A stretch of DNA of 64,000 nt from Escherichia coli. Lineage in GTDB: Bacteria; Pseudomonadota; Gammaproteobacteria; Enterobacterales; Enterobacteriaceae. The translations under genes and the position numbers were made by a program. The DNA is taken from the NCBI RefSeq assembly GCF_003334315.1, contig NZ_QOWR01000024.1. One strand, written 5' to 3'. Under the pieces are notes generated by a model that saw only the letters and a list, made by a program, of their open reading frames with translations, was not told the origin of the DNA and did no database searches. Positions 3,100 through 17,969 of the stretch are shown piece by piece (within the stretch, counting starts at the first letter, position 1; every line of letters begins with the position of its first letter).

Positions 3100-4309
<1,210 letters not shown>

Positions 4310-4404: not shown

Positions 4405-4921
4405 GTGTTCCCCGCGCCAGCGGGGATAAACCGGAGCGTAGAGATTCTCGAAACCGATCCGGACGGTGTTCCCCGCGCCAGCGGGGATAAACCGAATAAA
4501 TAATAATCCAGTAGCCCCATGTATTAGTGTTCCCCGCGCCAGCGGGTATAAACCGGTAATAAAAAATATTCTATTTCTGCTGAATCAGTGTTCCCCGCGC
4601 CAGCGGGGATAAACCGCTTGCGAGCAAAAGATCCAGGCCGAGAAAGACGTGTTCCCCGCGCCAGCGGGGATAAACCGCGATAACCGCGTCAGTATTGGAC
4701 AGGATATCAGTGTTCCCCGCGCCAGCGGGGATAAACCGAATCTATTGTGAATTTGAAATGGTCCAGCACTGTGTTCCCCGCGCCAGCGGGGATAAACCGG
4801 GTAAAAACACGGTCTGAACCGACATTCATGTGTGTTCCCCGCGTCAGCGGGGATAAACCGGGCGCACTGGATGCGATGATGGATATCACTTGGAGTTCCC
4901 CGCCCCTGCGGTAGAACTCCC
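4405..4921 (+). CRISPR. Type I-E CRISPR array, 9 repeats (29 bp) and 8 spacers (32 bp each)
   Basis: Repeat GTGTTCCCCGCGCCAGCGGGGATAAACCG starting at 4405, 4466, 4527, 4588, 4649, 4710, 4771, 4832, plus degenerate terminal copy GAGTTCCCCGCCCCTGCGGTAGAACTCCC at 4893; period 61 bp; single-base variants in repeat 3 (GGGTATAAA) and repeat 8 (GCGTCAG). Confidence 0.97.
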
Positions 4922-15007: not shown

Positions 15008-15646
15008 ATGAGTCAGAATACGCTGAAAGTTCATGATTTAAATGAAGATGCGGAATTTGATGAGAACGGAGTTGAGGTTTTTGACGAAAAGGCCTTAGTA
15101 GAAGAGGAACCCAGTGATAACGATTTGGCCGAAGAGGAACTGTTATCGCAGGGAGCCACACAGCGTGTGTTGGACGCGACTCAGCTTTACCTTGGTGAGA
15201 TTGGTTATTCACCACTGTTAACGGCCGAAGAAGAAGTTTATTTTGCGCGTCGCGCACTGCGTGGAGATGTCGCCTCTCGCCGCCGGATGATCGAGAGTAA
15301 CTTGCGTCTGGTGGTAAAAATTGCCCGCCGTTATGGCAATCGTGGTCTGGCGTTGCTGGACATCCTGGCCGATGAAAAAGAGAACGGTCCGGAAGATACC
15401 ACGCAAGATGACGATATGAAGCAGAGCATCGTCAAATGGCTGTTCGAGCTGAACGCCAAACAGCGTGAAGTGCTGGCACGTCGATTCGGTTTGCTGGGGT
15501 ACGAAGCGGCAACACTGGAAGATGTAGGTCGTGAAATTGGCCTCACCCGTGAACGTGTTCGCCAGATTCAGGTTGAAGGCCTGCGCCGTTTGCGCGAAAT
15601 CCTGCAAACGCAGGGGCTGAATATCGAAGCGCTGTTCCGCGAGTAA
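15008..15646 (+). CDS. rpoS: RNA polymerase sigma S (RpoS) allele with in-frame internal deletion; 212 aa instead of 330 aa, predicted non-functional
   Basis: N-terminal 118 aa ([21 protein letters not shown]...[11 protein letters not shown]) and C-terminal 94 aa ([14 protein letters not shown]...[10 protein letters not shown]) match RpoS; regions 2.2-3 (e.g. YATWWIRQ) absent. Confidence 0.9.
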
Positions 15647-15703: not shown

Positions 15704-15735
15704 AAAAGGTCCGATGCCCATCGGACCTTTTTATT
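15704..15735. terminator. Bidirectional hairpin terminator between convergent rpoS and ygbN
   Basis: Stem AGGTCCGAT / ATCGGACCT with T-run on + strand and A-run upstream (T-run on - strand). Confidence 0.5.
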
Positions 15736-15739
15736 AAGG

Positions 15740-17104
15740 TCAAATTACCGCCCATACGCACCAGGTAATTAAGAATCCGGTAAAACCGAGAATGGTCGTT
15801 AACACTGTCCAGGTTTTCAGACCGTCTGCTACCGACAACCCCAGATATTTGGTCACAATCCAGAACCCTGAGTCATTAATATGTGACGCACCAAGCCCAC
15901 CAAAGCAGGCTGCCAGCGTCACCAATACGCACTGAATCGGATTCAATCCCATCACCGCTTCTGAGAGTAACCCGCCGGTTGTCAGTATTGCTACGGTTGC
16001 TGACCCCTGCGATGCACGCAGCGCCAGTGAAATAATAAATGCGGCTGGTAACAGAGGCAGGTCAATCATTTGTAGCATGTTGGCAAGGGCTTTGCCGACG
16101 CCCGATTCCACCAGCACTTTGCCAAATACCCCTCCAGCACCAGTAACCAAAATCACTACCGCCGCAGTGGGAAGGGCTGAGCCCATAATGTCGCTGGTGT
16201 GTTGTAAGCTCCAGCCGCGACGTAAAGCCAATAACCAGAATGCCAGCACCAGCGCAATCATTAGAGCTACCATTGGTGAGCCGATCAGCTGTAGCGTACC
16301 AAGCAGGGGATGCGAAGGCGGCATCAGTGTTGCGGAAACCGTACCCGCCATGATAATCGCGATAGGAATAACAATTAGCGAGGTGACCAGCGCGACGCCC
16401 GGTGGATTTATTTTATCGCTTAATTTTGTCGCGCCTTCCTCACTGGCCGGAGCCAGTTGCATCTGTTCCAGTACTTCCACCGACATCGCATATTGGTGCT
16501 TATTGATTATTTTCGCTGCAAAGTAGCCAACAATCCCTACGGGAATAGAAATCGCAATACCGATGATGGTTAGCCAGCCGATGTCTGCGTGGAGTAACCC
16601 CGCTGCGGCGACAGGGCCTGGATGCGGCGGTACCGCCACATGTACAGTTAGCATGATCCCAGCGACAGGCAGGCCAAATTTGAGTGGCGATATTTTGGCA
16701 ACCTTGGCAAAACCGTAAATGATTGGCGCAAGAATAATAAAGCCGACATCAAAGAAGACGGGAATACCGAGGAAGAACGCTGCCAGAGTCAGCGCAGCGA
16801 TAGTTCGTTTGTCACCTAACTTGCGACTGAAATAATTAGCCAGTGACTCTGCACCACCAGAGTGTTCGATCATACGCCCCAGCATAGCGCCCAGACCAAT
16901 AATAATAGTGACGGAACCAAGCACACCGCCCATCCCGGCGATCATCACTTTACCCACTTCGCCCGCCGGTATACCCGCCGCAAGTGCGACTAACAGGCTG
17001 ACGAGGAGCAGAGCAACGAATGGTTGTACCTTTGCCTTGATGACCAGCAGCAACAGCATGATTACGCCAGCTAACGCAATGCATAACAATGTAATTGTGG
17101 ACAT
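15740..17104 (-). CDS. ygbN: GntP-family transporter, 454 aa
   Basis: Highly hydrophobic, GntP-like N-terminus; K-12 position adjacent to rpoS. Confidence 0.85.
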   Translation of the reverse strand: MSTITLLCIALAGVIMLLLLVIKAKVQPFVALLLVSLLVALAAGIPAGEVGKVMIAGMGGVLGSVTIIIGLGAMLGRMIEHSGGAESLANYFSRKLGDKRTIAALTLAAFFLGIPVFFDVGFIILAPIIYGFAKVAKISPLKFGLPVAGIMLTVHVAVPPHPGPVAAAGLLHADIGWLTIIGIAISIPVGIVGYFAAKIINKHQYAMSVEVLEQMQLAPASEEGATKLSDKINPPGVALVTSLIVIPIAIIMAGTVSATLMPPSHPLLGTLQLIGSPMVALMIALVLAFWLLALRRGWSLQHTSDIMGSALPTAAVVILVTGAGGVFGKVLVESGVGKALANMLQMIDLPLLPAAFIISLALRASQGSATVAILTTGGLLSEAVMGLNPIQCVLVTLAACFGGLGASHINDSGFWIVTKYLGLSVADGLKTWTVLTTILGFTGFLITWCVWAVI

Positions 17105-17192
17105 GGGAAACCCTGTCTGAAAGTTATAGTTAACCTACCCCATCCGTAGATGGGGGGATGTATGGGTACGTTGTAATTAGGGATTTAACGAA

Positions 17193-17969
17193 TTAGCGCC
17201 AGGCGTCAAACCAGCCAAGCCCTTCTTCGGTGAGGCCACGAGGTTTATATTCACAACCGATCCAGCCCTGATATCCCACCTCATCGAACAGGCGGAACAG
17301 CCACGGATAGTTGATTTCTCCATCGTCCGGTTCATGTCGATCAGGTAGTCCGGCAATTTGTACGTGCGCATATTTCCCGGCGTAGTCGCGGATTAAATGC
17401 GTCAGGTTGCCATCTACTTTTTGCGCATGAAAAGTATCTAGTTGAATAAACACGTTATCTCGCGCAACCTCTTCAACAATAGCCAGTGCCTGATACTGGC
17501 TGGAGAAGAGATAATGAGGCTTAACGTCGGGGCTGAGTGCTTCAACTAATATTCGCTTGCCGTGTAGCGCAAAGCGGTCGGCAGCGTAGCGGAGATTATC
17601 GATAAATACTGCCCGGTACCGTTCAGCGTCTTCGCCAGCGGGCACGACGCCTGCCATCACATGGACTTGTTCACAATTGAGCGCCAATGCATATTCCAGT
17701 GCCAGGTCGATGTCTGCGTGTGCTTCGTGCTCACGTCCGGGAAGGGCGGATAATCCCCATTCCCCCGCATTAATATCTCCGGGAGCGGTATTGAACAGCG
17801 CCAGTGTCAGATGGTTTTGCTCCAGTTGCTTTTGGATTTGCAGGGTGGAGTAGTCATAGGGAAACAGAAATTCCACAGCATCGAACCCGGCTTTTCGCGC
17901 TGCGGCGAAGCGTTCAATAAAAGGCACTTCGGTGAACATCATGGATAAATTAGCTGCAAAACGAGGCAT
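17193..17969 (-). CDS. ygbM: Hydroxypyruvate-isomerase-like protein (2-oxo-tetronate isomerase), 258 aa
   Basis: TIM-barrel xylose-isomerase-like sequence; synteny. Confidence 0.85.

Follow-up and report, generated by a model that had tools for sequence, protein, structure and literature searches.

Among the elements described between the genes of Escherichia coli operons, the REP hairpins of malE-malF, the subject of work by Newbury et al. in 1987, are said to be intercistronic 3'-protective stem-loops. The C(UNCG)G hairpins studied by Tuerk et al. in 1988 and by Cheong, Varani and Tinoco in 1990 are reportedly "extraordinarily stable" and found in phage T4 intercistronic regions and in rRNA; the C(UACG)G loop considered below is one that we take to be a UNCG-type tetraloop. 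C(UNCG)G is a structural motif and not a functional family, and it is therefore silent on mechanism at the junction described here. The term "protective RNA 3' structures" was used by Dar and Sorek (Dar and Sorek, 2018; PMC5927463), and the decay-barrier mechanism is documented for malE-malF and for approximately 12% of E. coli operons (PMC5927463). In addition, a model in which a hairpin acts on the gene downstream is documented for papBA (PMC5927463), where a 5' stem-loop is made by RNase E cleavage (Bricker and Belasco, 1999, as cited in PMC5927463).

The locus under study lies on a stretch of 64,000 nucleotides of E. coli DNA, hereafter the window, in which ygbM and ygbN, both on the minus strand, are separated by a gap of 88 nt (17105-17192). 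On the 5' side of this gap in the mRNA stands the last enzyme gene, ygbM (otnI, 2-oxo-tetronate isomerase; 17193-17969), assigned from its ORF, NCBIfam NF043033 and the RefSeq context, and on the 3' side ygbN (15740-17104), a GntP-family transporter according to its ORF and its RefSeq and protein-collection names. As originally predicted, and as the sequence and the ORF coordinates confirm, the gap contains a hairpin at 17138-17155 (CCCCATCCGTAGATGGGG on the plus strand) with a 4-nt loop and a perfect GC-rich stem of 7 bp, five of them G-C pairs. Because both genes are on the minus strand, the hairpin reads CCCCAUC-UACG-GAUGGGG in the mRNA, with its loop at 17145-17148, and the CGTA loop quoted in the original prediction has to be corrected as an antisense reading. 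A 4-nt U-N-C-G loop with a C-G closing pair exists on the mRNA strand only (the antisense loop being CGUA), and folding yields -12.7 kcal/mol for the sense and -10.9 for the antisense orientation. RNA folding, which had been proposed as a check, thus upholds the structure, every stem pair having a probability of 0.94-0.98 when folded with 388 nt of context. This minus-strand stem-loop, supported by sequence, energy, pair probability and conservation, begins 37 nt past the ygbM stop codon. It is preceded in the mRNA by a C-rich, G-poor, untranslated and poorly conserved spacer (17156-17192, minus strand) and followed by a conserved 33-nt ygbN leader (17105-17137, minus strand), which includes a single-stranded, AU-rich stretch and, at 17111-17114, an SD-like AGGG. 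A coding role or an upstream in-frame ygbN start was rejected, as an in-frame UAG stands right after the stem in E. coli.

Regarding the name of the upstream gene product, thousands of RefSeq genomes list YgbM as an "HPr family phosphocarrier protein", a name taken from NCBIfam NF007441 (587 bits). YgbM is a hydroxypyruvate-isomerase-fold enzyme and passes NF043033 (2-oxo-tetronate isomerase) with 395 bits versus a cutoff of 325; the "HPr" name looks like a wrongly expanded abbreviation.

Compared with the described systems, the ygbM-ygbN hairpin is like the malE-malF type in being a stable sense-strand structure soon past a stop codon within a polycistron, in apparently having the more abundant segment upstream (ygbN/ygbM ratio of 0.32, estimated from DESeq2 summary values) and in being conserved in relatives (E. 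albertii, a Citrobacter plasmid and a Citrobacter-type contig, with analogues in three more genera), Klebsiella-type junctions excepted. Unlike the REP hairpins of malE-malF, it is much smaller, with one 7-bp stem, and it is a single-copy element rather than a REP/BIME copy; an origin as REP/BIME or any other repeat was rejected on the basis of a single copy per genome in 4592 E. coli genomes. With the C(UNCG)G hairpins it shares a C-G-closed UACG loop, which is UCCG in the Citrobacter copy, as well as the mRNA orientation and an intercistronic site. A sense-strand RNA structure under selection at an enzyme/transporter gene boundary fits the evidence best, and we tentatively propose, as a possibility and not yet as the probable answer, that the hairpin is a segmental mRNA-decay barrier of the malE-malF type within the polycistronic mRNA of the ygbJKLMN sugar-acid operon, by which the enzyme message is kept above the transporter message. 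It is an ordinary kind of element, a candidate addition to the known class of intra-operon stabiliser hairpins, and alters no general concept.

Taken by itself, the hairpin does not exceed what chance would produce. In the window, 21 perfect 7-bp stems have five or more G-C pairs, versus 10.5 +/- 2.7 in shuffles, 7 of the 21 being CRISPR repeats, and perfect 7-bp stems of any composition number 28 in shuffled windows. One C(UNCG)G hairpin whose stem reaches 7 bp or more is present in the window, versus 0.41 expected, and 33% of shuffled windows have such a hairpin too. For the energy of the best hairpin in the 88-nt gap, dinucleotide shuffles give a p-value of approximately 0.09. A scan against Rfam 15 at E <= 10 returned chance-level matches only, the sole one to overlap being SAM-Chlorobi (16.8 bits versus a gathering score of 35, E = 9). 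The CRISPR-like array of the window (4409-4853) is built on a hairpin-forming repeat, TCCCCGC-GCCA-GCGGGGA, spaced mostly by 61 bp, and its repeats make up one third of the GC-rich 7-bp stems of the window.

It is the conservation of the hairpin that makes a function likely, the sequence in isolation making no such case. Queries of 36 and 56 nt across the junction match one place per genome in 4592 of the 5426 complete E. coli genomes, and the window itself has one match to the hairpin query. The hairpin with 9 nt on either side is unchanged in 4570 of these 4592 genomes and carries one mismatch in the other 22, and the polymorphisms found in sampled E. coli strains and in 39 metagenomic contigs lie upstream of the hairpin, in the spacer that follows ygbM. 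Between E. albertii (L005) and E. coli there is no difference in the 55 positions from the hairpin to the ygbN ATG and there are four in the 33 positions that open the gap (Fisher p = 0.018), while third codon positions differ by 20% in ygbM and 36% in ygbN; at a rate of 20%, the probability of no change in 55 positions is approximately 5e-6.

A more distant comparison is provided by the complete ygbI-JKLMN island carried by plasmids of Citrobacter and Enterobacter (L085), 13 of which are alike across the junction. Identity with E. coli is 93% from the hairpin to the ATG (51/55) versus 58% over the first 33 gap nucleotides (19/33; p = 2e-4), for a coding sequence of ygbM and ygbN that is 79% identical overall and 48-55% identical at third codon positions. 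Within the hairpin alone, 17 of 18 bases are identical (p approximately 8e-4): the stem is unaltered, and the change of the loop from UACG to UCCG replaces nothing but the N of UNCG. A single stem change was found, in one metagenomic Citrobacter-type contig (L097) whose 5' arm reads CCCUAUC; a C-G pair becomes U.G, so that seven pairs are kept in the sense RNA (-11.2 kcal/mol) and an A.C mismatch arises in the antisense. These comparisons indicate that the hairpin is under purifying selection. In the alignment with the Citrobacter plasmid, the conserved block has a sharp onset at the 5' boundary of the hairpin and extends to approximately codon 22 of ygbN. Over these first codons of ygbN (window approximately 17040-17104), synonymous sites are unusually conserved relative to the plasmid copy, and the start of ygbN, with 93% identity in 30-nt bins versus a gene average of 79%, is the most conserved stretch of the 2.2-kb ygbM-ygbN region.

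The ygbM-ygbN junction is missing from 834 of the 5426 complete E. coli genomes, and conjugative IncF plasmids in Citrobacter and Enterobacter also carry the ygb operon together with its ygbI repressor; the operon thus behaves as an accessory, mobile catabolic island. In E. coli OkiPb01711, a Mu-like prophage with genes for Mom and Com has integrated 1-2 nt past the 3' side of the hairpin (L004 approximately 2666, corresponding to window position 17136) and splits ygbM from ygbN. In the window, rpoS (15008-15646, plus strand) has a 354-bp in-frame internal deletion with its junction near 15362, at a short ALLD(L/I) repeat (...RGLALLD|ILADEKENG...), which reduces the product to 212 aa versus 330; 141 nt around this junction map in other E. 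coli genomes as two pieces across 495 nt, and the strain is probably without functional sigma-S, judging from its gene sequence.

In more distant genomes whose ygbM has a ygbN orthologue directly behind it, the gap sequence cannot be aligned, but a hairpin is usually there. Entomohabitans has an 8-bp hairpin 33 nt from the AUG, Serratia a composite hairpin of -21 kcal/mol at 30 nt and Gallibacterium a 13-bp hairpin at 30-31 nt, all three unrelated in sequence to the E. coli hairpin and at about the same position. Pantoea has an 8-bp hairpin 79 nt from the AUG, and Actinobacillus a terminator-like hairpin with a U tract at approximately 20 nt. When the shuffle p-values of six independent junction gaps are combined by the Fisher method, the result is approximately 2e-4. 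RNAalifold applied to five diverged gaps gives a 5-pair stem with apparently compensatory pairs, on which we do not rely because, beyond the E. coli clade, the sequences are aligned almost at random; true compensatory (double) changes appear only in alignments too diverged for trust. The junctions of Klebsiella and of a Salmonella Rubislaw plasmid, with gaps of 56-57 nt, have no hairpin (MFE of -2.5 to -3.3 kcal/mol), so that the element is dispensable for the operon. These hairpin-less junctions (L086 4284-4339, L088 4284-4340) have CTGTACACCTGT in common, and the Gallibacterium hairpin (L014 approximately 3812-3840) is made of CTGTACAG...CTGTACAG; TGTACA may be an operator-like motif shared before ygbN in the Klebsiella, Salmonella-plasmid and Gallibacterium lineages.

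Could the hairpin nevertheless be a palindrome that arose by chance and does nothing by itself, conserved through the adjoining constrained ygbN translation-initiation region or through recent recombination? We regard this as doubtful. The absence of a match in Rfam, the local shuffle result, the approximately ten GC-rich 7-bp stems expected per 64 kb and the lack of a hairpin in Klebsiella-type junctions are all compatible with such an origin, as is the finding that its removal in silico leaves the predicted accessibility of the SD-AUG region unchanged. However, the hairpin lies at least 20 nt 5' of the SD, outside the usual ribosome-binding region, and is still so much better conserved than the spacer; the two changes observed exactly preserve the UNCG loop and a wobble pair; and other genera have independent hairpins at the same place. 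A role as a translational insulator, or in alternative pairing with the SD-AUG region, finds no support in folding, since the predicted unpaired probability of that region stays at 0.31 when either arm is mutated or the hairpin is deleted in silico.

Deletion of ygbI derepresses ygbJ, K, L, M and N, all five (PMC8464067), which agrees with the placing of the hairpin inside an operon, and a hairpin with a U run is found only after ygbN. The latter, a terminator-like structure at 15704-15733 (minus strand), has a GGTCCGATG/CATCGGACC stem, with perfect stems at 15707-15728, after which the ygbN strand reads UUUUAUU. This structure was found by direct reading of the sequence, is not listed by a simple terminator scan, and is likely the operon end. 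Per-nucleotide densities were estimated from the DESeq2 baseMean and fold-change values of the delta-ygbI RNA-seq (PMC8464067, Dataset S6), which are summary values and not coverage profiles. The estimates are 1.81 for ygbJ, 1.43 for ygbK (a step of 0.79 from ygbJ), 0.86 for ygbL (0.60 from ygbK), 0.76 for ygbM (0.88 from ygbL) and 0.24 for ygbN (0.32 from ygbM). On these summary values, the fall from ygbM to ygbN, about 3-fold and located at the hairpin junction, is the largest of the operon. The fall could equally reflect Rho polarity or an intrinsic instability of ygbN mRNA. Induction in delta-ygbI is approximately 15-fold for ygbN versus 25-fold for ygbM, the basal level being relatively higher for ygbN, and from the induction of ygbN it follows that transcription crosses the junction. 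The published tables of 3' ends, decay and transcription start sites (PMC7815308, PMC5927463, PMC4681348) have no entry at this junction, as expected because the operon is repressed in the wild type.

According to the mechanism that we envisage, transcription from the YgbI-repressed ygbJ promoter would read through the ygbM-ygbN junction, and RNase E, an endonuclease, would cut in the AU-rich, unstructured ygbN leader or in the ygbN coding region. The UNCG-capped hairpin would then stop 3'-to-5' exonucleases (PNPase, RNase II), such that the ygbJKLM enzyme segment would outlast the ygbN transporter segment and the transporter message would be several-fold lower. Matches to the RNase E-type pattern RN|WUU, which are pattern matches only, number two (17123|17122 and 17111|17110); both are in the ygbN leader, on the downstream side of the hairpin, and there is none upstream. 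The proposal thus has in its favour the stable fold on the mRNA strand, purifying selection, changes that preserve the features of the hairpin, analogous hairpins elsewhere, the step between ygbM and ygbN and the downstream-only RN|WUU matches; against it stand the chance-level expectation for the hairpin alone and the hairpin-less Klebsiella and Salmonella Rubislaw plasmid junctions. The part of the original prediction according to which the hairpin could modulate transporter expression through mRNA stability or processing stands as the best-fitting reading, owing to purifying selection, the sense-only pairing of the variant and the fall in density; the cleavage, the exonuclease block and the hairpin as cause of the step-down are what we infer.

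With its span from the 5' edge of the hairpin to approximately codon 22 of ygbN, the conserved block is as compatible with a ygbN-leader module, which would have a 5' function, as with a barrier on the 3' side. A papBA-type 5' cap, in which RNase E or a weak internal promoter would make a ygbN mRNA starting just 5' of the hairpin and the terminal stem-loop would guard it against 5'-end-dependent RNase E, is an explanation that we consider rather unlikely. The hairpin is intercistronic and 5' of the downstream gene, as in papBA, and the sharp onset of conservation at its edge, with a spacer that varies freely upstream, fits such a cap. In four lineages, 30-33 nt separate the hairpin from the AUG, slightly more than a ribosome footprint would cover, although this equal spacing may be mere inheritance. 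Similarly, the lower fold-change and relatively higher basal level of ygbN are compatible with some independent expression, but unlike in papBA the downstream gene is the less abundant one, its read density being approximately 3-fold below that of ygbM and not above; a promoter scan of the minus strand over the gap and the 3' end of ygbM gave no promoter-like site, and no RN|WUU match lies 5' of the hairpin.

Next comes a transcriptional attenuator, which we judge unlikely, whereby a pause or weak termination, possibly with Rho loading on the C-rich, G-poor untranslated spacer, would let only a fraction of polymerases enter ygbN. Like an intrinsic terminator, the hairpin is a GC-rich stem-loop past a stop codon (7 bp, five G-C), and a genuine hairpin and U-tract terminator is present at the Actinobacillus junction; the fall in density at the ygbM-ygbN junction would also be explained. 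Unlike an intrinsic terminator, it lacks a U tract (three U in the 9 nt after the stem, UAGGUUAAC), and it is unlisted by a terminator scan of the window, in line with the original view that it is not a clear terminator. Moreover, ygbN is co-induced with the upstream genes, and so most or much transcription passes the hairpin. Regarding Rho, the first 43 untranslated nucleotides past the ygbM stop codon, with 16 C and 2 G, are rut-like, but they are short relative to the untranslated C-rich, G-poor rut of approximately 60-80 nt and poorly conserved, the conserved part being the hairpin and leader. No Term-seq 3' end is listed at the junction, but the operon is silent in those data.

A more ambitious possibility, which strikes us as improbable, is that the transporter has a dedicated cis-regulatory RNA module, composed of the hairpin, the invariant 33-nt leader and the first approximately 22 codons of ygbN, instead of a passive exonuclease stop; an sRNA, a protein or a metabolite might be the signal in response to which this module sets the translation or decay of ygbN separately from the enzymes. 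By eye, the leader has no complement to UACG or UCCG that could form a pseudoknot between the loop and downstream sequence. A small hairpin, GACAGGG-UUU-CCC(A)UGUC (window 17100-17117, minus strand, -6.2 kcal/mol), pairs the SD-like AGGG with the ygbN start-codon region; its Citrobacter copy has CUC in place of CCC, with a G.U pair retained, and on this predicted fold it may hold ygbN translation low.

Very improbable, finally, is a DNA palindrome bound by a dimeric protein, serving YgbI or some other regulator as an auxiliary operator: although the site is a perfect 7+4+7 inverted repeat whose half-sites are conserved and whose centre differs between E. coli and Citrobacter, the sole YgbI ChIP-exo site is in the ygbI-ygbJ region (PMC8464067), that bound region is AT-rich (TTCACATAAA...TTTATGTGAA repeats) and unlike CCCCATC/GATGGGG, the L097 variant loses DNA symmetry and retains RNA pairing, and the palindromes at the same position in other genera differ. 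For the want of likeness to the ygbI-ygbJ site and the single ChIP-exo peak elsewhere (PMC8464067), the hairpin as a YgbI (DeoR-type) operator was rejected.

Should the hairpin indeed be a decay barrier, one YgbI-controlled promoter would supply the four enzymes of the threonate/tetronate pathway with several times as much message as the membrane transporter, and a compact UNCG-capped example would join the intra-operon decay barriers. This would be of practical relevance to those who use or evolve the ygb operon, e.g., for growth on tartrate or threonate.
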